A DNA stretch of 64,000 nucleotides. Origin: a virus. The position numbers were made by a program, and so were the translations under genes. Under the pieces are notes generated by a model, which saw only the letters and a program-made list of their open reading frames with translations, did no database searches and was not told the origin of the DNA. Positions 4,496-50,652 of this stretch are shown here, in pieces. How positions within the stretch are numbered: position 1 is the stretch's first letter; every line of letters starts with the position of its first letter. The stretch covers positions 128,001 through 192,000 of IMG/VR virus record IMGVR_UViG_3300045988_177154. One strand, 5' to 3'.

Positions 4496-4526
4496 TATAT
4501 AGAAAAAGAGAGCAAATTGCTCTCTT

Positions 4527-5699
4527 TTATTTTGTCAGTGATTCAATAAATTCTTTTTTAGATTTTCCTTGGCAAGCAAGTTTTTTAGATTGCAAAATCA
4601 GTTCACCAAATTCTTTTGATGGTTTAAATCCAAGTTGAATTAACTCTTGACCTGTAATGAATTGTGTTGAAATTATTTCTTGACTCACTTTAAACATAGA
4701 AGTCAATAATTTAATTTCAAATGTTGGCAAACCTAGCTTAATACCTTGAACAAGAATTGAGAATAAAGCAAATTCTTTAAATTTGATTTGCTCTGTTTTG
4801 AAAACAAATTCTCCAACTGTTTTTGAATCTTTAATAAATGATGAAGTAACTTCAGCCAAGAATTTGAATGATTTAATCATTTCAACAATTTCTGTTTGAT
4901 TTGTGATTGTTAATTCAGAACTTTCAAAGATGAAAGCAATAACAATTTCTGTTACTTTCTCTGGGCATAATTCCTTTGTAGCTTGAGTTAATTTATCAAT
5001 CAATTCAAGTTTTAAAGATGTTGGGAAGAAATCTGTAAGCACTCCCATTTTTTCTAATTTCTTAAAGAATACAGATGGTTTTTCTGATTTAGTAATTGCT
5101 TTGTGAGTTTCTTCAAAAATTCGTTCCATTGGAAGAATAGAGCAATCAAGAGTTTTAGAAATTTCAATTGTTTCAGGTGCAATTTCAAATCCAAAGCGAG
5201 AAGCAAATTGAGCTGCACGAAATACTCGTAATGAATCTTCAGCAAATTTTTCAGTACAATGTCTAATGACACCAGTTTCTAAATCTTTCATTCCACCAAA
5301 GAAGTCAAGAATTTTACCTGTTTGTGTGTCTTTCATTAGAGCGTTGATTGTAAAATCTCGGCGTTCAGCAGCTTTTGCTTCACCAATAAATGGGTCAACA
5401 ACAATTTCAAAGTCAGTATGTTTTTCTCCAATTTGTTTTTCTGTACGAGGGAAACTAAAGTCGAAATCAGTTCCGTCCATGAAAGCTTTGTAAACGCCAA
5501 ATGACTTGCCCACAAAGTCAATTTTAATACCAAGAGATTTAGCAACAGAAATAAAATCATCTTCTGTAATAAAATGAATTTCAATGTCAATGTCTTTGTT
5601 AGTTTTGCCTAACACTTCATCTCGGACACAACCACCTACATAATAAGTTTTTGCTCCCTTTTCTGATAATTTTTTAAGTAGTGTTTTTAATTTAGTCAT
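4527..5699 (-). CDS. cca: CCA-adding enzyme (tRNA nucleotidyltransferase, class II)
   Basis: YYVGGCVRDEVLGK..KDIDIE head motif and RRDFTINAL motif of the PolyA-polymerase/CCA family. 390 aa. Confidence 0.85.
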   Translation of the reverse strand: MTKLKTLLKKLSEKGAKTYYVGGCVRDEVLGKTNKDIDIEIHFITEDDFISVAKSLGIKIDFVGKSFGVYKAFMDGTDFDFSFPRTEKQIGEKHTDFEIVVDPFIGEAKAAERRDFTINALMKDTQTGKILDFFGGMKDLETGVIRHCTEKFAEDSLRVFRAAQFASRFGFEIAPETIEISKTLDCSILPMERIFEETHKAITKSEKPSVFFKKLEKMGVLTDFFPTSLKLELIDKLTQATKELCPEKVTEIVIAFIFESSELTITNQTEIVEMIKSFKFLAEVTSSFIKDSKTVGEFVFKTEQIKFKEFALFSILVQGIKLGLPTFEIKLLTSMFKVSQEIISTQFITGQELIQLGFKPSKEFGELILQSKKLACQGKSKKEFIESLTK

Positions 5700-5730
5700 A
5701 AGTTTTTCCTCTTTCGTTTTCTATATTTAT

Positions 5731-5759
5731 ATGATACAACAAAAATTTCACTTTGTCAA
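5731..5759 (-). promoter_or_regulatory. Sigma-70-type promoter for cca
   Basis: On the minus strand: TTGACA, 17-nt spacer, TATCAT. Confidence 0.6.
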
Positions 5760-5776
5760 CAATAAAATAAAAAATA

Positions 5777-5805
5777 TTTACATTTTTAAAATTTTTTGTT
5801 ATAAT
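5777..5805 (+). promoter_or_regulatory. Sigma-70-type promoter for the Thg1-like operon
   Basis: TTTACA, 17-nt spacer, TATAAT. Divergent from the cca promoter. Confidence 0.6.
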
Positions 5806-5868
5806 GAATTTGTTCTCAAAAGGTGCTTAAAAAATTTGAATAAAATAAAATAAATTGGAGAACACAAA

Positions 5869-6663
5869 ATGAAAACACAAGATGTTATTGGAAACAAATA
5901 TAAAGCCTTGGAAAAGGAATATAGAGCAAAATTTGAAAGCAATAAATATTTAATTCTTAGATTAGATGGTAAAGCTTTCCACTCATTCACAAAAGGAATG
6001 AAAAAGCCATTTGATGAAAGATTATATGAAATCTTCAAAGAAACTTTGAAATACTTATGTGAAAATGTCGATGGCGTGAAAATTGGCTATTATCAATCAG
6101 ACGAAATCTCTTTGGTCTTATTTAATGATAGCCCTAAAATCAATAAACAATATTGGTTTGATAACAAAGTAGAAAAAATCCTTACTATTGCTACATCAAT
6201 CTGTACTGCTAAATTTAATTCTGAATATAACAAATTCGGACAATTTGGAGCTAAAGAGTTTGGCTTCTTCGATGCAAGAGGATTTGTAGTAGATACACTT
6301 GATGAAGTACAAGAATATTTAGAATGGAGAGTTAATGACTCTGTTAAAAATTCTGTTTATTTATATGCTTTTGATAAAGTGAAAGATAATAGCAATCCTA
6401 CTAAAGCTTTGATGAATATGTCTGTTAAAGAAAAGATTGATTTGTTAAAGAATGAATATGGAGTAGATTATTACAACTTTGAATCAAAATATAGAAAAGG
6501 AATTTTTTACTCTAAAGAGTATACTACATTCGTAGTTAAAAAAGAACAATACCCACAACATTTGAAAGAAGATAAGATTGTCACTAGAAGAAAATTCAAA
6601 TTACATGAAACTTTTGATAATGTTGCAGATATTGTTGACCATTTTAGAACGAAAGGTGAATAA
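5869..6663 (+). CDS. Thg1-like protein (tRNA-His guanylyltransferase family 3'-5' nucleotidyltransferase)
   Basis: LILRLDGKAFHSFTKGMKKPFDERL and YQSDEISLVL match the Thg1/TLP palm-domain motifs. Confidence 0.75.
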   Translation: MKTQDVIGNKYKALEKEYRAKFESNKYLILRLDGKAFHSFTKGMKKPFDERLYEIFKETLKYLCENVDGVKIGYYQSDEISLVLFNDSPKINKQYWFDNKVEKILTIATSICTAKFNSEYNKFGQFGAKEFGFFDARGFVVDTLDEVQEYLEWRVNDSVKNSVYLYAFDKVKDNSNPTKALMNMSVKEKIDLLKNEYGVDYYNFESKYRKGIFYSKEYTTFVVKKEQYPQHLKEDKIVTRRKFKLHETFDNVADIVDHFRTKGE

Positions 6664-6665
6664 TT

Positions 6666-7421
6666 ATGAGTAATAATCAGATTATTACTAGTTATAATAA
6701 AATTGCTTTTTTAGGTGACTTGCATGGAAATACAAATAATGCTTATAAGTTAATTGATTACATTATGGAACAAGATAATCCCGATTTGTTAATTCAAGTT
6801 GGAGATATGGGAGTAATGGGGGAGCTGTTTGAAAAATACCTAAATAAGCTAAATAAAAAATTGGAATCTTATAATATAGAGCTTTGGTTTATTGACGGCA
6901 ATCATGAGAATTTCAATTGGTTACTAAACAAAGTTAAAAATCCTCATGGACTCAATTCTATTACTTCTAAAATTAAATATATTCCTAGAGGAACAATGCT
7001 AACACTAGGAAAGAAAAACTTTTATTTTTGTGGTGGAGCCTTCTCTATTGATAAATTCATGAGAACTATTTATAAGAGTTGGTGGCCACAAGAAACTTTA
7101 TCCAAAGAAGAAACTGAAGAGCTAATCAATTATTACAATGAGAATTATAGTAATTATAAAATTGACTATTTTATCTCACATGATACTCCATTGTTTGACC
7201 ATTATCAAGATGATTCTATCTTTAGGAGTCAGGCAGATTTTTATGAAGATTACTTCCATAAGATGAATTTAAGTAAATTGTATGAACTAACTAAAGCTCC
7301 AAAAATTATTCATGGGCATTATCATACTTATAATAAATTTGAAAAAGATGGTATTGAAAATATTACTCTTAATTGTGATAGCTCTCCATTTGAAGAACAA
7401 TATATTATTGTGGAAGTGTAA
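6666..7421 (+). CDS. Calcineurin-like metallophosphoesterase
   Basis: Motif series IAFLGDLHGN, VGDMG, GNHEN, ISHDTP, IHGHYH. Starts 3 nt after the Thg1-like stop. Confidence 0.75.
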   Translation: MSNNQIITSYNKIAFLGDLHGNTNNAYKLIDYIMEQDNPDLLIQVGDMGVMGELFEKYLNKLNKKLESYNIELWFIDGNHENFNWLLNKVKNPHGLNSITSKIKYIPRGTMLTLGKKNFYFCGGAFSIDKFMRTIYKSWWPQETLSKEETEELINYYNENYSNYKIDYFISHDTPLFDHYQDDSIFRSQADFYEDYFHKMNLSKLYELTKAPKIIHGHYHTYNKFEKDGIENITLNCDSSPFEEQYIIVEV

Positions 7422-7488
7422 CTCAGAGTTGACTTTTTATTGATTTTATGATAGAATGGAAGAAAATAAATTTTAAAAGGGTGAAGAA

Positions 7489-8496
7489 ATGACAATAGAT
7501 AAAAAAGCTTTAGAATATAGAAATGAAGCAATTCAACTAAGAGAAGAATATGAACAAAGAGCTAAAGAATTAAAGAATTTAGATAATACAACAAAAGAAT
7601 GGTTTGATGGAATTGATGAAAATAGAAGATTTTTCTTTAAAGCTCTTTTGCCTGAATACAAATTCTTAAGTTATCTGAATGATGAACAATTAGCGAAATT
7701 TACTGAACATCGTATGGGTAAACCAAGAAAAGAAAATCCTAATTATAACTTTCACCCAGAGATTACTGACTATAACAGAAGTAATTGCTTAAATCTTATG
7801 AGTGCTATTTCAGGTAAAACAATTGAACAAATTATTAAAGTTAGAGATAAACTTGAAAATATGACTGAATTAGAAGCTTATCGCTATATTATGGAACGTA
7901 TTCCATTACGAACTGATAAGCCAATTGTTGCTTTGGATTTAGAAGCCGCTTCACCTAGTCTTCGGGATATGAATAATAAATTTGACTTTGGTCCTCGTAC
8001 AGAAATTATTGAAGTTGGTTATATTAAAGTTTGGCCTGATGGTAAAGTTAAGAAATTCTCTAAATTATTTGGTGTAGACCCAAATTTACTTAAAACTAAT
8101 GGAACTGGTAGAGAAGATATTCACAATATTTCCCCGAACGACATTAAAGATTTACCTAGATTTGTTGATGATTTAGAAGCTCAAAAAGAAATCTATAATG
8201 ATTTGAAAGATTCTATTTTATTGGCTCATAATGCTCGTTATGAAAAGGGGCAACTATCTCATTCATTGAGGGGCTTTAATAAACTTATGAAAGAGAATAG
8301 ATTAGAAGTTATTGATACAATGCACTTATCTCAATTCTTTATGCCTCAAAATGAAAATAATACTAACGAAGCTTTTGTTACTAATACTGGTGGAAAATAT
8401 GAAGAAGCTCATAGAGCCTTTGCTGATGCACTAATGTCATTAAATGCTTTTATGAGATATTTTAAAAAACCAGAAATTAAAATCAAAAAGGATTAG
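7489..8496 (+). CDS. DEDD(h) 3'-5' exonuclease (DnaQ/RNase T-like) with an unknown ~140-aa N-terminal domain
   Basis: ExoI IVALDLEAAS, ExoII LLAHNARYEKGQL, ExoIII HRAFADAL. Confidence 0.7.
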   Translation: MTIDKKALEYRNEAIQLREEYEQRAKELKNLDNTTKEWFDGIDENRRFFFKALLPEYKFLSYLNDEQLAKFTEHRMGKPRKENPNYNFHPEITDYNRSNCLNLMSAISGKTIEQIIKVRDKLENMTELEAYRYIMERIPLRTDKPIVALDLEAASPSLRDMNNKFDFGPRTEIIEVGYIKVWPDGKVKKFSKLFGVDPNLLKTNGTGREDIHNISPNDIKDLPRFVDDLEAQKEIYNDLKDSILLAHNARYEKGQLSHSLRGFNKLMKENRLEVIDTMHLSQFFMPQNENNTNEAFVTNTGGKYEEAHRAFADALMSLNAFMRYFKKPEIKIKKD

Positions 8497-8498
8497 TT

Positions 8499-8993
8499 AT
8501 GAACAAAAGAAAAATTATTGCCATATGGGCAGAAGATGAAAATGGCTTAATTGGTAAAGACAATGGTTTACCATGGAAAAAGCCCGAAGATTTAAAACAT
8601 TTTAAAGAAACAACTATCAATAAAACAATTGTAATGGGTAGTAAGACTTTTGAAGGTCTTGGAAAGAAAACACTTCCTAACAGAACTACAATTATCCTTA
8701 CTAGAGATTTAAATTATGAGGCTAACGGAGCGATTGTTTGTAATTCTATTGATGAAGTTTTAAATAGTACAAATGATAATTTGTATATTGTTGGTGGGAA
8801 AGAAGTTTATAAATCTTTCTTTCCTTACCTTACTGATTTAATTAAAACTGAAATTAAAGGAACTTATGAGGGCGATACTTATATTGATAATACGTTTAAT
8901 TATCTACAATTTAAGCTAGACTCAATTAAACAGCTTTCTGATGATGTGCTTGTAAAATATTTCAAGAGGGTATCTGATGAAGATTATCAATAA
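8499..8993 (+). CDS. folA: Dihydrofolate reductase
   Basis: IAIWAEDENGLIGKDNGLPWK, DLKHFKETT, IVMGSKTFE, LPNRTTIILTR, YIVGG. Confidence 0.85.
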   Translation: MNKRKIIAIWAEDENGLIGKDNGLPWKKPEDLKHFKETTINKTIVMGSKTFEGLGKKTLPNRTTIILTRDLNYEANGAIVCNSIDEVLNSTNDNLYIVGGKEVYKSFFPYLTDLIKTEIKGTYEGDTYIDNTFNYLQFKLDSIKQLSDDVLVKYFKRVSDEDYQ

Positions 8994-9411
8994 AGATATA
9001 ACAACTCTCAAAAAAGGCATTTTACTTCAACAAGTCAATTGTCAAAATACAATGGGCTCTGGAGTAGCAAAAGCTATTTATTTAAAATGGCCTATCGTCA
9101 AGAAAGAATACCACAAATTTTCTCAAAACAAAACCCCTAATGATTTGCTTGGTCTAATCCAAGAAATAAAAATCAATGAAGATTTATTAGTAGTAAATTC
9201 CTTTACTCAATTAACTTATGGAAGAACTGGAAAACATACCAATGAAGATTTACTAATCAAAAATATTAAAGAAATTGCTAATAAATATAGCAATCAAACA
9301 ATAGTTATTCCTTACTTAATTGGGTGTGGATTAGGTGGTGGAAATTGGGATTACATTTTTAAAAATATAAAAAATATAAACAATCTTTTAATCTGTAAAT
9401 ATGAGGGATAA
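8977..9411 (+). CDS. Macro domain protein (ADP-ribose binding/hydrolase)
   Basis: LLQQVNCQNTMGSGVAKAI and GCGLGGGNW resemble macro-domain phosphate-binding loops. Overlaps the folA 3' end by 17 nt. Confidence 0.65.
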   Translation: MKIINKDITTLKKGILLQQVNCQNTMGSGVAKAIYLKWPIVKKEYHKFSQNKTPNDLLGLIQEIKINEDLLVVNSFTQLTYGRTGKHTNEDLLIKNIKEIANKYSNQTIVIPYLIGCGLGGGNWDYIFKNIKNINNLLICKYEG

Positions 9412-9413
9412 TT

Positions 9414-9773
9414 ATGAAAGACTTGAAATTAAATGTCAAAGAATCACGTTACAAAGGCTTTAAAGTAGGACAAGGAGTACAATTTACTTATTTCACAAAA
9501 GATGATTTAGAAGTTATTAGAGTAGCATTTCTAACTTTAGGAAATGTCCGAACTAAATTCCAACGTGTTATTAAAAAGAAACCAGAGTTAGAAAAAGGTT
9601 TGGAAGAGCTTAAACATATTATCTATAAACGAACTAACTTTGTGCCAAGTGATAAGAACGATAAAGAATTTTTAGATTGGTGCAATAACATTGTCAAAGA
9701 AGGCTCAGTTGATTATTATAAAACATTGTTAAACAAAACTAAGAAAGAATTAGAAGAAGAAAAAGGAGAATAA
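9414..9773 (+). CDS. Hypothetical protein
   Basis: 119-aa ORF with a GAGGG RBS. Tightly packed in the operon. Confidence 0.65.
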   Translation: MKDLKLNVKESRYKGFKVGQGVQFTYFTKDDLEVIRVAFLTLGNVRTKFQRVIKKKPELEKGLEELKHIIYKRTNFVPSDKNDKEFLDWCNNIVKEGSVDYYKTLLNKTKKELEEEKGE

Positions 9774-9775
9774 AT

Positions 9776-10267
9776 ATGACTACAATTAAAGAAAAAATTA
9801 CAGCTATGACAAAAGAAGCATTACTTGCTAATAAAGCTGCTTCAATGGATGGAGTAAAAGGAACTCCTAAAGAAAAAGAATTAAAAGAAGCAATTAAACC
9901 AAAACTTACTACATTACGTTCAATTGAAGCTGCTATTCACAATAAAGAAATTGAGAAAAAAGCTAAATTAACTGAAGATGAAATTGTTGGTGTGCTTAAA
10001 TCTGCTCAAAAAGTTCGTCTTGCAGAAAAAGAAGCTTTAGCAAATGCTGGAAGAGATACAGAAAAACTTGATGTTCAATTAGCAATTATCGAAACTCTAT
10101 TACCAGCTCAAATGTCTTATGATGAAGTTGTAGCAAAAGTAAAAGAAATTATTGCTAACGCAGAAGTAAAAGACCGTAAACTTATCGGAATTGCACAAAA
10201 AGAACTTAAAGGTAAGGCAGACGGAAAACTTATTACTCAAATTGTGAATGAGGAATTAAATAAATGA
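9776..10267 (+). CDS. GatB/YqeY-domain protein
   Basis: Helical K/E/A-rich sequence with LKGKADGKLI..IV near the C-terminus, as in YqeY and the GatB tail domain. AGGAG RBS. Confidence 0.7.
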   Translation: MTTIKEKITAMTKEALLANKAASMDGVKGTPKEKELKEAIKPKLTTLRSIEAAIHNKEIEKKAKLTEDEIVGVLKSAQKVRLAEKEALANAGRDTEKLDVQLAIIETLLPAQMSYDEVVAKVKEIIANAEVKDRKLIGIAQKELKGKADGKLITQIVNEELNK

Positions 10268-10863
10268 ATCCAGCTATATTAGCAGCTAATAAGAAACAAG
10301 GTAGAGGAAAATTTGACTTCACAAATTTTCTTCTCCTATTTTCAATCTTATTCATTATTACACGAGTATTCTTTTGGGGTACTTATAAAGTAGAAGGTCA
10401 TTCAATGGACCCTACTCTCAAAGGTGGAAATTACTTAGTATCAATAAATTATTTCACACCTGAAAGGGGCGATTTAGTAACAGCTAAAGAAGATGATAGA
10501 GTTATCATAAAAAGAATTATAGGCTTACCAAATGATACTATTGAATTTAAAAACGATAAACTATATATAAATGAAGTAGAACAAGATGAGTCTTACTTAA
10601 ATACTTTTAAAGAAGCATTTACTAAAGACAGACTTCATGAAATATATTCTTACAACGAGAACTATCAAATAAGAGCTGCACAAATGACACATTTTACTCT
10701 TGATAATGAGGGTAGAAGTGAATTTAAAATTACTCTAAAAGACAATGAATATTATCTATTAGGCGATAATCGACCAGTTTCAAAAGATAGTAGAGAAGTA
10801 GGGGCTTTTACTAGAAATCAAATTAATGGAAAAGTTATCATTAAAAACATTAACCCATTTTAA
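10264..10863 (+). CDS. lepB: Signal peptidase I
   Basis: N-terminal TM helix. Catalytic Ser box EGHSMDPTL, GDLV, Lys box IKRIIGLPNDTIE, YYLLGDNRPVSKDSR. Confidence 0.85.
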   Translation: MNPAILAANKKQGRGKFDFTNFLLLFSILFIITRVFFWGTYKVEGHSMDPTLKGGNYLVSINYFTPERGDLVTAKEDDRVIIKRIIGLPNDTIEFKNDKLYINEVEQDESYLNTFKEAFTKDRLHEIYSYNENYQIRAAQMTHFTLDNEGRSEFKITLKDNEYYLLGDNRPVSKDSREVGAFTRNQINGKVIIKNINPF

Positions 10864-10870
10864 AGTTGAA

Positions 10871-10898
10871 AACGGTTGAAAAACCGTTTTTCTTTTTT
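10871..10898 (+). terminator. Rho-independent terminator
   Basis: AACGGTT / AACCGTT stem followed by a T-run. Confidence 0.7.
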
Positions 10899-14039: not shown

Positions 14040-14202
14040 GTATCAAAATTTACTCAAAGAATTAGCAGAGGATAGAGATGAATCCTTAAAAGTGCTAGAG
14101 GAAGGAGTTGATTCCGAAACACATATAGAACTTAAAAAAGAAGTTTATGTTTTGAATAGCATAGTAGCAAGAATGGAAAGTTTTTTGAGGGAAGAACCGT
14201 GA
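14014..14202 (+). CDS. Hypothetical protein (small, helical)
   Basis: ATG at 14014 with an AAGGAG RBS. Overlaps the neighbouring genes at both ends. Confidence 0.55.
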   Translation: MTVNPYKIEYQNLLKELAEDRDESLKVLEEGVDSETHIELKKEVYVLNSIVARMESFLREEP

Positions 14203-14543
14203 AAATATTTTTGGACGATTTAAGACCAGTACCAGATGAATTTGATTTAGTATTTAGAAGCGGTAAAGCATTACTGAAATACTTAAAAGAAAATCCTAAT
14301 CAACATTATGAGTTAATCTCATTTGACCATGATTTAGGAGAAAACACTTTAACTGGCTATGATGTAGTAAAAGAAATTGTAGATGATTTAGACATTAACT
14401 TTACTTTTGATAGATTTCAATTTCACACTGCCAATGTAGTTGGATTTAGGAATATGTATTATTACTTAGTAAATGCTCAAATTTATGATTTATTCCCACC
14501 TGGTATTATAGATAAAAATTTAAAGACTTACACAAGTGTATAA
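14199..14543 (+). CDS. Receiver-like domain protein, resembles the cyclic-phosphate-processing receiver (cREC) family
   Basis: MKIFLDDLRPVPDEF...ELISFDHDLGE..LTGYDVVKEIV matches my memory of the cREC pattern (LDD.R.P, S.DHDLG, TGYDV). GTG start overlaps the upstream stop. Confidence 0.45.
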   Translation: MKIFLDDLRPVPDEFDLVFRSGKALLKYLKENPNQHYELISFDHDLGENTLTGYDVVKEIVDDLDINFTFDRFQFHTANVVGFRNMYYYLVNAQIYDLFPPGIIDKNLKTYTSV

Positions 14544-18577: not shown

Positions 18578-19399
18578 ATGAACAGAACTATAAAAGATTG
18601 TGTTTATGGCCTTGCTGTTGGGGACGCTTTAGGAGTCCCCTTTGAATTTAGGCCTAGAGATTCATTTAATGCAACAACTATGACTTCAGGTGGTGTTTGG
18701 AACCAACCTATTGGAACTTGGTCAGATGATACTAGTATGACCATTGCTACTTGTGATGCTCTTAAAGAAAACAATAAAAAGATTGATTTAAAAGCAATTC
18801 AACGAAACTTTGTTATTTGGAAAGACTACGATTCTTATACAGCTCATAACAATACTTTTGATGTGGGCAATACAACTTCACAAGCTTTAGATAGAAGAGT
18901 TGGATTGGACGATTTATATTCTAATGGTAATGGAAGTCTAATGAGAATTGCTCCTTTAATATTTGTTGATTGTACAGATGAAGAAATTGCTCAAGTAAGT
19001 GCTATTACTCATGCTCATCAATACTCAATCGAAGCTTGTATCTTATATGTGAAAATAGGTAAAGAACTACTTAAAGGAAAAGATTTAAAGACAATACTAG
19101 ATGAATTAGATTGCTCAGACACTTTTGCCAGATTAAACAATCTCAAAAATTTAGATAGGGACTCTATCCAATCTGGTGGTTATGTTGTTCATACCTTGGA
19201 AGCTTCCTTATGGTGCATTTTAAACACTGCTACATACAGTAGTGCTGTGCTCACTGCAGTTAATCTTGGTGATGATACAGATACAACGGCTGCTGTTACA
19301 GGCGCTCTAGCTGGACTTATTTACGGGTACGAATCAATACCAAAAGAATGGATTGACACTTTAGCCAACAAAGAGTTAATTGATTCTTGCTTGTTTTAA
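18578..19399 (+). CDS. ADP-ribosylglycohydrolase (ARH/DraG family)
   Basis: CVYGLAVGDALGVPFEF, GTWSDDTSM and GDDTDTTAAVTGALAGLIYG are the metal-binding motifs of the family. Confidence 0.8.
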   Translation: MNRTIKDCVYGLAVGDALGVPFEFRPRDSFNATTMTSGGVWNQPIGTWSDDTSMTIATCDALKENNKKIDLKAIQRNFVIWKDYDSYTAHNNTFDVGNTTSQALDRRVGLDDLYSNGNGSLMRIAPLIFVDCTDEEIAQVSAITHAHQYSIEACILYVKIGKELLKGKDLKTILDELDCSDTFARLNNLKNLDRDSIQSGGYVVHTLEASLWCILNTATYSSAVLTAVNLGDDTDTTAAVTGALAGLIYGYESIPKEWIDTLANKELIDSCLF

Positions 19400-48379: not shown

Positions 48380-48453
48380 GGACCATTAGCTCAATTGGTC
48401 AGAGCACCCGGCTCATAACCGGATGGTTGCAGGTTCGAACCCTGCATGGTCCA
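48380..48453 (+). tRNA. tRNA with CAT anticodon (elongator Met, or Ile2 if lysidinylated)
   Basis: Hand-folded cloverleaf: acceptor GGACCAT/ATGGTCC, D-arm GCTC-AATTGGTCA-GAGC, anticodon loop CTCATAA, T-arm GCAGG-TTCGAAC-CCTGC. No encoded CCA. Confidence 0.85.
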
Positions 48454-48588
48454 TTCCTAGTTTGGCATATAGTCGACTATGCTAATATTGGTAGGGCCCG
48501 TTAGTGACCCCATATTGAGTTCTAAATCCAGTAACGTAACGGACGATAGTTCTGAATATGAATGTAGGTTCGATTCCTATCTAGGAAA
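48454..48588 (+). ncRNA. tRNA-like element E2, ~134 nt (too long for a canonical tRNA)
   Basis: Starts directly after the Met tRNA. Perfect 7-bp acceptor-type stem TTCCTAG/CTAGGAA, canonical T-arm GTAGG-TTCGATT-CCTAT, 6-bp D-like stem GGCATA/TATGCT. About 78 nt lie where a 17-nt anticodon arm plus variable loop belongs, and I could not fold a clean anticodon arm. Confidence 0.3.
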
Positions 48589-48617
48589 TAAAAATTTAAA
48601 TTTTTTAAATTTTTCTA

Positions 48618-48647
48618 TTGACTTTGCTTAAAATTGTGATATAATAA
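48618..48647 (+). promoter_or_regulatory. Sigma-70-type promoter of the second RNA cluster
   Basis: TTGACT, 18-nt spacer including a TG, TATAAT. Confidence 0.6.
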
Positions 48648-48693
48648 TATTATCGGATATGACAAAAGCATCTAAATGATGCTCCTTTCTTAT

Positions 48694-48767
48694 GGCCTGC
48701 TAGCTCAATTGGATAGAGCACACGCCTTCTAAGCGTGCGGTTATAGGTTCGAATCCTATGTGGGCCA
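48694..48767 (+). tRNA. tRNA-Arg (TCT)
   Basis: Acceptor GGCCTGC/GTGGGCC, D-arm GCTC-AATTGGATA-GAGC, anticodon arm CACGC-CTTCTAA-GCGTG, T-arm ATAGG-TTCGAAT-CCTAT. No encoded CCA. Confidence 0.85.
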
Positions 48768-49144
48768 TTACTTAGACTCGGACAGCTATCTCATTTAATA
48801 TAGGAAAAATACATTAAAGATACAGTCACCAATTTTTTAAAACAATTTTAAAACGAATTTACGAGTCTAGAATTTAGGAACGAACAGCAATCCTTTTCTA
48901 AACAACTATTAAAGCTAAATAATAATTTGAAATGAAAAAGAGAGTTCCTAGTTTGATTTAAGGGGTTTCTTGTGAAGTTAAATTAGTTCAAAACTAATAA
49001 CTCCTATAAAGCGGGGCCTTTGATTTCCCCCGCTTGAAAATCACTAAAAATAAATGCTCCTAAGAATTTATTTTTTGTTTTTTTCGTTTCTTTTCATTTC
49101 ATTCCGCTTGGGTAATACTTCCTCCTGTTACCCAAGTACATTAT

Positions 49145-49215
49145 TACGGGTTAGTGAAAAGGTATCACATAGGGCTCATTACCCTAAATTGGGGGTTCGA
49201 ATCCCTCGCCCGCAA
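49145..49215 (+). tRNA. Atypical tRNA with CAT anticodon (initiator-like anticodon stem)
   Basis: Acceptor TACGGGT/GCCCGCA with an A2xC71 mismatch. D-arm GTGA-AAAGGTA-TCAC. Anticodon arm TAGGG-CTCATTA-CCCTA has three G:C pairs next to the loop and T at position 37. T-arm GGGGG-TTCGAAT-CCCTC. Confidence 0.6.
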
Positions 49216-49240
49216 TTTCCATTGGCTACCACCGACAAAA

Positions 49241-49294
49241 AGCTCACTAATTCCAATCATAAAGATTGAAAATTAGTGAGCTTGGTGTTTTTTA
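49241..49294 (+). terminator. Rho-independent terminator of the RNA cluster
   Basis: 12-bp stem AGCTCACTAATT / AATTAGTGAGCT followed by a T-run. Confidence 0.8.
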
Positions 49295-49317
49295 TAAACA
49301 TGAAAGAAGGTTAATAA

Positions 49318-50424
49318 ATGAAATATAGTTACTCATACTATAATGAAGAAGATTTTGATACTTATGTTAAACAATTTGATAATTATTCTTTGCTTCAAAG
49401 TAGAGAATGGGGTGCAGTAAAAAGCCCTATATGGAAAAATAAAAAAGTTTTATTCTATGAAAATGAAAAAGTAGTAGGAACTGCCCTAATTCTTATTAGA
49501 GAAATTGCTTTTCATAAAAACTTTATCTACATTCCTTATGGGCCGCTTTTTGATTATTCTAATAAAGAATTATTTAACTTTGTAACAGAAAGCTTAAAGA
49601 AAATTGCTAAAGAAAATAAAGCAATTTTTGTAAAAGTAGTTCCACCTGTATTTGATGATAATTCTATTAGTGTCGATTTCAAAATTAACGGTTGGGTAGA
49701 AAATGTTACTGAAAAATCTTTTGATTCTATTCAACCAAAATTAAATGCTGTAATTAAAGATTTCAAAATGAGTAAAAGAATGAAACAAGAAAGACGAACA
49801 ACAGAAAATAAAAATGTACATTCTGTTTATTCTATTGACACTGAAGCTTCTTTTGAAACATTATTACATGATTTTTATTCTTTGACTAAATTAACTGAAA
49901 AAAGACAAGGTATTAAATTAAGAAATAAAGATTATTTCAGACAATTACTATATAGATACCCAAATTCATTCATTACTGTTTCTTATATTGATAAGGAAAA
50001 ACAAATTGCTAAATTAAATGAAGAATATAATAAATCAAATAGTGAAAAAGCTAAACAAGAATTAGAAAAACTTAAACATAATCAAGCTAAAAACATTCCG
50101 ATTTCAGGCACTCTTACTGTAATTTATGGAGATACGGCAGAATTACTCTATGCGGGATTTGACGATAATTTCAAATCATATAATTCTGCTTCTTATTCTT
50201 GGAGTAATTCTATTATGAAAGCTTTTGAGCTTAATCCTAATCTTAAATATGTAAATTTAGGTGGAGTAGAAAATGATGGGCACTTGCTAAACTTTAAAAA
50301 GAAATTCCACCCAGAGATTAGAACTTCTTGTAATGAATTTGATTTACCAATTAGTCCTTTATACTATTTATTCAAATTTGCTCTAAAACATAAGAAACTT
50401 ATTCTCAAATTTATCAAAAAATAA
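49318..50424 (+). CDS. FemAB/MurM-family aminoacyl-tRNA-dependent peptidoglycan peptidyltransferase
   Basis: LLQSREWGAVK, YIPYGPLFDYS, AIFVKVVPP, a coiled-coil insert (EKQIAKLNEEYNKSNSEKAKQELEKLK), then GTLTVIYGDTAELLYAGFDD and YVNLGGV. This is the FemABX layout. Confidence 0.7.
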   Translation: MKYSYSYYNEEDFDTYVKQFDNYSLLQSREWGAVKSPIWKNKKVLFYENEKVVGTALILIREIAFHKNFIYIPYGPLFDYSNKELFNFVTESLKKIAKENKAIFVKVVPPVFDDNSISVDFKINGWVENVTEKSFDSIQPKLNAVIKDFKMSKRMKQERRTTENKNVHSVYSIDTEASFETLLHDFYSLTKLTEKRQGIKLRNKDYFRQLLYRYPNSFITVSYIDKEKQIAKLNEEYNKSNSEKAKQELEKLKHNQAKNIPISGTLTVIYGDTAELLYAGFDDNFKSYNSASYSWSNSIMKAFELNPNLKYVNLGGVENDGHLLNFKKKFHPEIRTSCNEFDLPISPLYYLFKFALKHKKLILKFIKK

Positions 50425-50563
50425 AATTACTTGATATAATATATAAAGAGGGGTTAACTACTACTCTTCTTTATATATTGATTGTCAATAAATTTAATCT
50501 TAATGGTTGCAAAATAAATTTATTTTTGATACAATATTTAAAATGATATTTTATAAACTTTTT

Positions 50564-50652
50564 GGAGAGGTACTCAAGTCTGGTTAAGAGGACGGTTTGC
50601 TAAGCCGTTAGGTCGTTAATTCGGCGCGTGGGTTCGAATCCCATCCTCTCCA
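50564..50652 (+). tRNA. tRNA-Ser (GCT), type II with a long variable arm
   Basis: Acceptor GGAGAGG/CCTCTCC, anticodon arm ACGGT-TTGCTAA-GCCGT, 19-nt variable arm, T-arm GTGGG-TTCGAAT-CCCAT. Discriminator is A. No encoded CCA. Confidence 0.85.

Follow-up and report, generated by a model that had tools for sequence, protein, structure and literature searches.

We analysed a 64-kb window, the whole stretch of 64,000 nucleotides at positions 128,001 to 192,000 of the IMG/VR virus record IMGVR_UViG_3300045988_177154. Near its start, a tRNA nucleotidyltransferase gene (cca) stands back to back with an operon that opens with genes for a Thg1-like protein (TLP), a metallophosphoesterase (MPE) and a DEDDh exonuclease (Table 1). 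The source is a jumbo siphophage of about 325 kb and 29% GC with a Gram-positive host. Across the locus the window is identical (100%) to a 324,989-bp metagenome contig in ENA (L009), the close relatives are IMG/VR contigs of 262-315 kb, and GC content is 28-31%. The host type is indicated by genes for sortase, an LPXTG/MucBP protein, FemAB, an S26 signal peptidase and GH66 in the window and its close relatives.

Table 1 Features of the locus and the phage tRNA genes, in window coordinates.
Feature	Position	Strand	Matches and remarks
Terminator-like hairpin with T-run	4504-4528	.	11-bp palindromic stem from + strand scan; overlaps cca 3' end (stop at 4527)
cca, class II tRNA nucleotidyltransferase of 390 aa lacking an HD domain	4527-5699	-	PolyA_pol, RNA-binding domain, phrog_2244
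Divergent sigma-70-like promoter pair	5731-5805	both	both 11/12, inside 169-nt spacer
TLP, bacterial TLP type, 264 aa	5869-6663	+	Thg1, Thg1C, phrog_4717
MPE, Dbr1-like catalytic domain, 251 aa	6666-7421	+	Metallophos 2e-13
DEDDh exonuclease with family-specific N-terminal helical domain, 335 aa	7489-8496	+	RNase_T 6e-11
folA, dihydrofolate reductase	8499-8993	+	Pfam DHFR_1 3e-45
DarG-like macro domain	8977-9411	+	phrog_335, NCBIfam DarG, PADLOC DarG
orf119, without family match	9414-9773	+	Pfam, PHROG, NCBIfam and PADLOC all empty
YqeY/GatB-tail domain protein	9776-10267	+	Pfam YqeY 1e-18, phrog_1460 6e-11
Type I signal peptidase (S26), final operon gene	10264-10863	+	Peptidase_S26 2e-37; 4-nt overlap with YqeY
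Terminator-like hairpin closing the + strand operon	10868-10891	+	hairpin scan
Four phage tRNA genes (Met-CAU, Arg-UCU, initiator-like Met-CAU, Ser-GCU), CCA unencoded	48380-50652	+	

The + strand operon comprises eight genes (TLP, MPE, exonuclease, folA, macro, orf119, YqeY and signal peptidase), spaced at -17 to +2 nt, with a single longer gap of 67 nt ahead of the exonuclease. The - strand promoter reads TTGACA-17-TATCAT (5759-5731) and the + strand one TTTACA-17-TATAAT with an extended TG (5777-5805). Promoter-like sites occur overall at chance level (41 observed vs 39 expected), and just three in 7 kb reach 11/12, two of which are this pair, back to back in a single spacer. A first-pass annotation, made from the letters of the window alone, had given the open reading frames (ORFs), their families and the divergent promoter pair. 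The ORF coordinates and both promoters agree with ours, and the families are borne out by Pfam and PHROG; the macro domain falls under its Pfam cut-off, yet the phrog_335 and DarG models match it. That annotation had ended the operon at YqeY (68.2 bits against a Pfam gathering cut-off of 27), beyond which the signal peptidase and a terminator-like hairpin follow. Since the transcription unit continues via folA, the macro domain, YqeY and the signal peptidase to that terminator, it is a mixed operon. Most likely, four of its genes (folA, the DarG-like macro domain, orf119 and the signal peptidase) have other roles and are carried along by co-transcription.

The cca product shows GGCVRD, DIDIE, RRDFTINA and EDSLRVFRA, corresponding to the GGxVRD, DxD, RRD and EDxxR motifs, and matches PolyA_pol at 6e-21 (75.5 bits against a cut-off of 23), the RNA-binding domain at 1.2e-5 and phrog_2244 at 7e-57. 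In NCBIfam the CCA families score best (138 bits against a cut-off of 451), with PcnB also at 106 bits. Because the protein stays under all equivalog cut-offs, CCA addition is its likely but not certain activity. The obvious substrates would be the phage's own tRNAs: in all four, as the first-pass annotation had noted, the discriminator A is followed by something other than CCA, namely TTC, TTA, TTT and TAT. The best cca match in the phage database, MT835871.1 (52% identity, 42% GC), has nothing but cca in common with the window and is not a relative.

The TLP matches the Pfam families Thg1 at 6e-28 (97.7 bits, cut-off 29.2) and Thg1C at 5e-7 (30.5 bits, cut-off 26.3), and phrog_4717 at 1.5e-59. 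Its nearest PDB match is the Bacillus thuringiensis TLP (4kgk, 5e-38), human Thg1 following at 5e-14. The catalytic carboxylates D33 (in RLDG), D78 and E79 (in QSDE) align to D29, D76 and E77 of human Thg1 and are invariant among 18 diverse TLPs; with all three kept, the loss of catalytic residues that the first-pass annotation had named as grounds for abandoning a repair role did not appear. The HINNLYN segment of human Thg1 is not conserved, the aligned residues being SVKNSVY. Judged by sequence, the protein is of the bacterial 5'-repair type and not a eukaryotic tRNA-His-specific Thg1. Bacterial TLPs have been described as repairing 5'-truncated tRNA in vitro (PMC3061083, PMC3701042). The B. 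thuringiensis enzyme (PDB 4kgk) has the same catalytic carboxylates and two-domain layout as the window TLP, to which it is about 40% identical; the latter is encoded by a phage. Among phages, TLPs are known from no fewer than 164 deposited genomes, to which several hundred viral contigs from metagenomes can be added.

The MPE has a complete set of metal-ligand motifs (D18, H20, D47, N79, H80, H172, H218 and H220). A profile of its 34-member family matched Dbr1 in the PDB at 3e-11 over the whole catalytic domain, the next structure reaching 4e-4. The AlphaFold2 (AF2) model (pLDDT 94) gave the same neighbour, its nine best Foldseek matches all being Dbr1 entries (E ~1e-10, TMq 0.60-0.65), with GpdQ, Rv0805 and Mre11 further down. 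Dbr1 (PDB 4peh, 5k78) is the nearest solved relative by profile and fold, but it is an enzyme of about 350-400 aa with a Cys in motif I (GCxHG) and a C-terminal DBR1 domain. In the MPE, motif I is GDLHG, with D18 invariant in the family alignment and no Cys in place of the first Asp. Pfam finds Metallophos only and no C-terminal DBR1 domain, the protein ending at residue 251, and a 2'-5' specificity would be hypothetical. Because the motif-I Cys and the C-terminal domain are absent, profile and model together describe a Dbr1-like enzyme rather than a Dbr1. An RNA phosphatase of the lambda-Pase/CthPnkp type was considered and rejected: lambda-Pase matched only at E ~0.05 over motif I, and CthPnkp was not among the matches.

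For the question of whether these genes belong together, we searched the ORFs of 79 IMG/VR TLP loci from outside the phage's own clade (46 lineages at 70% TLP identity) with hidden Markov models, and took phage-wide gene counts from 50,697 phage records. A cca gene lies within 10 kb of the TLP at 16 of the 79 loci, in 8 lineages, and is found in 487 phage records. The same MPE family, with 310 records phage-wide, has a member that close at 7 loci in 6 lineages, and in six of these seven the MPE is on the same strand, 0.6-5.5 kb downstream of the TLP. At the same distance, macro domains occur at 6 loci (3 lineages), folA at 2, YqeY at a single one and the exonuclease at none (0/79 loci, 0/46 lineages, 0/50,697 records). 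As an internal control, folA (1,675 phage records) is more than three times commoner than cca in phages yet eight times rarer beside TLPs, which argues for specific linkage. In an unrelated phage contig of about 120 kb (L084, 10001-15731), TLP, RlaP, an HD-containing cca, SIR2 and MPE form a single same-strand run. In Brevundimonas phage Marchewka, 2.5 kb separate TLP and cca, and in CcrC3 the distance is 13 kb. In mycobacteriophage Courthouse, an RNA ligase lies 1.2 kb from the MPE, which is also near a DnaQ-like gene. On a 9-kb contig (L100, 1331-8945), a cca-like gene with 35% identity and an exonuclease homologue with 37% point away from each other; this contig also carries a 659-aa unknown ORF, YkuD and a TROVE (Ro-like) protein. 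Given the neighbour counts across the TLP loci, TLP, cca and the Dbr1-like MPE are a recurrent set whose linkage is loose in general and tight in the window's clade, and the five-gene toolkit of the first-pass annotation (cca, TLP, phosphoesterase, exonuclease and YqeY) is not a recurrent unit: the TLP-cca and TLP-MPE pairs recur in unrelated phages well above the folA control, and the exonuclease and YqeY drop out.

Clade members whose TLP, MPE and exonuclease are as little as 65-69% identical still have the order cca<-|->TLP-MPE-EXO-folA...YqeY-SPase, which could be simple synteny. The spacing of TLP and MPE is 2 nt in the window (3 nt in the first-pass annotation) and becomes a 17-nt overlap in relative L006. 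The macro/orf119 slot is variable, orf119 being absent or replaced in L006-L008. One relative (L005, 5752-7709) has an IS607-like element, made up of a MerR-HTH serine recombinase and a 450-aa ORF, between cca and TLP. The 450-aa ORF has no Pfam match, and the element was discounted as a carrier of repair genes. In L007 and L009, TnpB (OrfB_IS605) genes are found close to the locus. A megablast search of the 50,697 phage records with the 5.7-kb region returned no match.

From the gene identities, the catalytic residues, the operon layout and the recurrence of TLP-cca and TLP-MPE, we infer that the most likely core function of the locus is the maintenance of tRNA acceptor ends, covering both maturation and repair, a reading that we hold with moderate confidence, about evenly balanced between belief and doubt. 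The divergent promoter region would drive cca leftward and the eight-gene operon rightward. The cca product would add CCA to the phage's own CCA-less tRNAs and restore clipped 3' tails, the TLP would refill 5'-truncated acceptor strands in the 3'-5' direction with the 3' strand as template, and the Dbr1-like MPE would clear the way for these polymerases by taking off a blocking group, be it a 2',3'-cyclic phosphate, a 3'-phosphate or a pyrophosphate. Both the exonuclease, as a trimmer of 3' trailers or of added nucleotides, and YqeY, as a tRNA-binding protein, may take part in end maintenance, on thin evidence that points partly to DNA.

There are known systems in which a phosphoesterase heals RNA ends before a rebuilding enzyme acts, as proposed here, namely T4 Pnkp with Rnl1, which deal with PrrC-cleaved tRNA-Lys, and bacterial Pnkp-Hen1, whose healing module is a binuclear metallophosphoesterase (PMC3675462). 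These systems, however, have the anticodon loop as their target and depend on two further enzymes, a 5' kinase and a ligase, which were both looked for and not found in the 64-kb window. Rebuilding by the window set would instead consist of nucleotide addition at two acceptor ends, and its MPE is unlike lambda-Pase or CthPnkp. The TLP's company also differs from that in cells, where bacterial Thg1 was linked to polynucleotide kinase, macro and RNA ligase by Anantharaman et al. 2010, who noted caudovirus Thg1 as well (PMC2904730); the window TLP stands with cca and a metallophosphoesterase.

Several observations weigh against a shared tRNA-end function. The operon contains the clearly unrelated folA and signal peptidase genes, and Pfam identified no kinase, ligase or RtcB among the genes called in the window. 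Gram-positive hosts with CCA-less tRNA genes already own cca. Distant MPE homologues often stand in contexts unrelated to tRNA, and the three looked up were all away from TLP and cca; in Lak-A1 and phiM7, cca has an MPE 9 and 19 kb away and no TLP within 25 kb, and the neighbourhoods of the best annotated phage TLPs, in a Bacillus phage (BM15) and a Staphylococcus phage (PMBT8), contain no cca, MPE or exonuclease. Phage size confounds the enrichment estimates, since large phages have all of these genes more often.

The exonuclease adds to these points. It has a DEDDh core with conserved D150, E152, E252, H308 and D313, in which Exo II has E252 in place of Asp, and its RNase_T match spans aa 147-321. 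By fold it is nearest to Cas2-DnaQ, Pol III epsilon, DinG and PolC, with RNase T lower (Foldseek E ~1e-5). Its nearest relatives are DNA exonucleases (DnaQ, PolC and DinG) and not RNA-processing DEDDh members such as RNase T, and one homologue is fused to a YqaJ recombination nuclease. The family is rare, with 18 homologues in 5.8 billion proteins and no tblastn match in the 50,697 deposited phage records; UniProt holds an identical copy of the window protein under A0A8S5RUU8, from 'Siphoviridae sp. ctHip2'. Its conserved N-terminal helical domain is covered by no fold match, PDB or viral, except the identical BFVD entry. Most homologues have an additional Cys-rich motif at the N-terminus, FHIN..G....C.A....CP.GG...H, which is probably a zinc ribbon and is missing from the window protein (alignment, N-termini of P0246-P0258).

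The macro domain scores 20.5 bits against a Pfam cut-off of 22, and other models match at 7e-27 (phrog_335), 7e-7 (NCBIfam DarG) and 2.7e-8 (PADLOC DarG). This resemblance points to DNA ADP-ribosylation, not tRNA, and fits the other NAD/ADP-ribose conflict genes of the window. With a cREC_REC domain protein at 14199-14543 and an ADP-ribosylglycohydrolase at 18578-19399, the DarG-like macro domain gives three candidates for NAD/ADP-ribose counter-defence in one window. PADLOC returned no defence-system match for cca, TLP, MPE or YqeY.

These data bear on the strongest alternative, a loose early or auxiliary operon without a shared pathway, in which cca would only mature the CCA-less tRNAs and the TLP would act independently, the MPE would degrade host signalling nucleotides or 2'-5' linked molecules, the exonuclease would work on DNA in proofreading or recombination, and the macro domain would reverse DarT-type DNA ADP-ribosylation. 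It accommodates the mixed operon, the DNA-type relatives of the exonuclease, the DarG match, the wealth of NAD/ADP-ribose conflict genes, the unrelated contexts of MPE homologues and the fact that the MPE's structural neighbours after Dbr1, GpdQ and Rv0805, are phosphodiesterases. Against it stand the linkage of TLP with cca and with MPE in several unrelated lineages, far above that of the commoner folA, the RNA-repair nucleotidyltransferase RlaP in the L084 cluster, and the tight and conserved TLP-MPE spacing. We consider such an operon possible, though on the whole doubtful. The acceptor-stem healing toolkit of the first-pass annotation holds in part: intact TLP carboxylates, recurrent linkage and the RlaP-containing cluster speak for its core, whereas the DNA-like exonuclease, the non-recurrence of exonuclease and YqeY, the DarG-like macro domain and the presence of folA and the signal peptidase speak against its full extent.

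A bolder form of the tRNA-end maintenance reading assigns the TLP, the Dbr1-like MPE, cca and possibly the DEDDh exonuclease to counter-defence. Such a module would restore acceptor ends that have been clipped, extended or pyrophosphorylated by immunity systems (Cas12a3, AbiEii/MenT, toxSAS), and its MPE would have a new RNA-end specificity related to Dbr1 chemistry. We likewise infer this role from the gene content, and consider it unlikely in this full form. Known defences against tRNA 3' tails include Cas12a3, which cleaves them (PMC12851939), AbiEii/MenT, which extend them, and CapRel/FaRel2, which pyrophosphorylate them. The locus is timely because tRNA-tail-targeting immunity has been discovered only recently.

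The general idea has a precedent in Iyer, Anantharaman, Krishnan, Burroughs and Aravind 2021, in which CCA-adding enzymes of jumbo phages restore tRNA 3' ends and Thg1 restores 5' ends, countering host attack on tRNA; macro and cRec are also mentioned there, as are calcineurin-like phosphatases in a few phages (PMC7824862). The repertoire in that work is scattered, with Thg1 'only sporadically present'. The first-pass annotation had regarded the gene combination as undescribed, which is right only in part: the pairing of CCA-adding enzyme and Thg1 as phage tRNA-end repair is in Iyer et al. 2021 (PMC7824862), whereas the tight TLP-MPE-DEDDh operon divergent from cca, the Dbr1-like nature of the phosphoesterase and the quantified TLP-cca and TLP-MPE linkage are not there and are new here. 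A literature search on phage TLPs or Dbr1-like phage enzymes found nothing specific. To our knowledge, experiments have yet to demonstrate a phage counter-measure that works by repairing acceptor ends. The locus offers a compact, testable candidate set, in which cca is joined by a TLP whose active site is intact and by the MPE in tight linkage, and the linkage across unrelated phages shows which genes to test together. A tRNA-end role, if true, would give a function to phage TLPs, which are now annotated only by analogy.

The TLP might alternatively serve tRNA-His, adding or restoring G-1 on phage or host tRNA-His, with its neighbours incidental. In databases the phage proteins carry the label tRNA-His guanylyltransferase, addition of G-1 opposite C73 is within the abilities of bacterial TLPs, and a tRNA-His gene might lie in the genome of about 325 kb outside the window. 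However, there is no tRNA-His among the four window tRNAs, the tRNA-His beside the TLP in L068 already encodes G-1 opposite C73, and the protein is of TLP type, aligning far better to the B. thuringiensis TLP than to eukaryotic Thg1 and lacking a conserved HINNLYN segment. We therefore regard this role as quite improbable. In the tRNA-His genes beside TLPs in L068 (4264-4338) and L029 (4061-4146), the acceptor stem is interrupted midway, at positions 4-6, by two U-U mismatches next to each other.

The weakest alternative concerns the tRNA-Met(CAU) at 49145-49215, which is initiator-like in having GGG/CCC in its anticodon stem, but starts with U1-A72, is mismatched at A2xC71 in the acceptor stem and has U37. 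When mitochondrial tRNAs are edited at the 5' end, repair is the task of TLPs; in Acanthamoeba and Dictyostelium, the first nucleotides of the acceptor stem are rebuilt by a TLP that copies the 3' strand, and by analogy a nuclease (the MPE or another) would remove nucleotides 1-2 of this tRNA, mismatched at position 2, for the TLP to rebuild. Infernal flags the mismatch, which falls in one of the first three acceptor pairs and is conserved in L094 and L095, where the tRNA is 100% identical despite diverged flanks. Programmed editing is nonetheless exceedingly improbable, since only one of the 96 unique tRNAs from all fetched loci is mismatched at positions 1-3, the frayed U1-A72/A2xC71 end may itself function by mimicking the unpaired 1:72 of bacterial initiator tRNA, and the lack of sequence variation in the tRNA leaves no covariation test. 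As that single case is confined to the window clade's tRNA-Met and the other TLP phage loci examined bear no wider signature, a general editing reading for TLP phages was rejected, and a 5'-editing role for the TLP is possible but unlikely.

The surroundings of the tRNA genes show some further features. Directly upstream of the initiator-like tRNA lies a hairpin (49108-49138) with the arms CTTGGGTAA...TTACCCAAG. In L094 both arms are changed in a compensatory manner (CTTAGACAA...TTGTCTAAG), which suggests a conserved RNA structure. Between tRNA-Met and tRNA-Arg, at 48455-48580, there is a T-arm-like motif, GTAGGTTCGATTCCTAT, in a stretch where neither ARAGORN nor Rfam calls a tRNA; the motif may be what is left of a degenerate tRNA. 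A gene of the FemAB family (49318-50424) separates the initiator-like tRNA from tRNA-Ser(GCU). Enzymes of this family use aminoacyl-tRNA, and a phage cell-wall cross-bridge enzyme flanked by tRNAs is an unusual arrangement.

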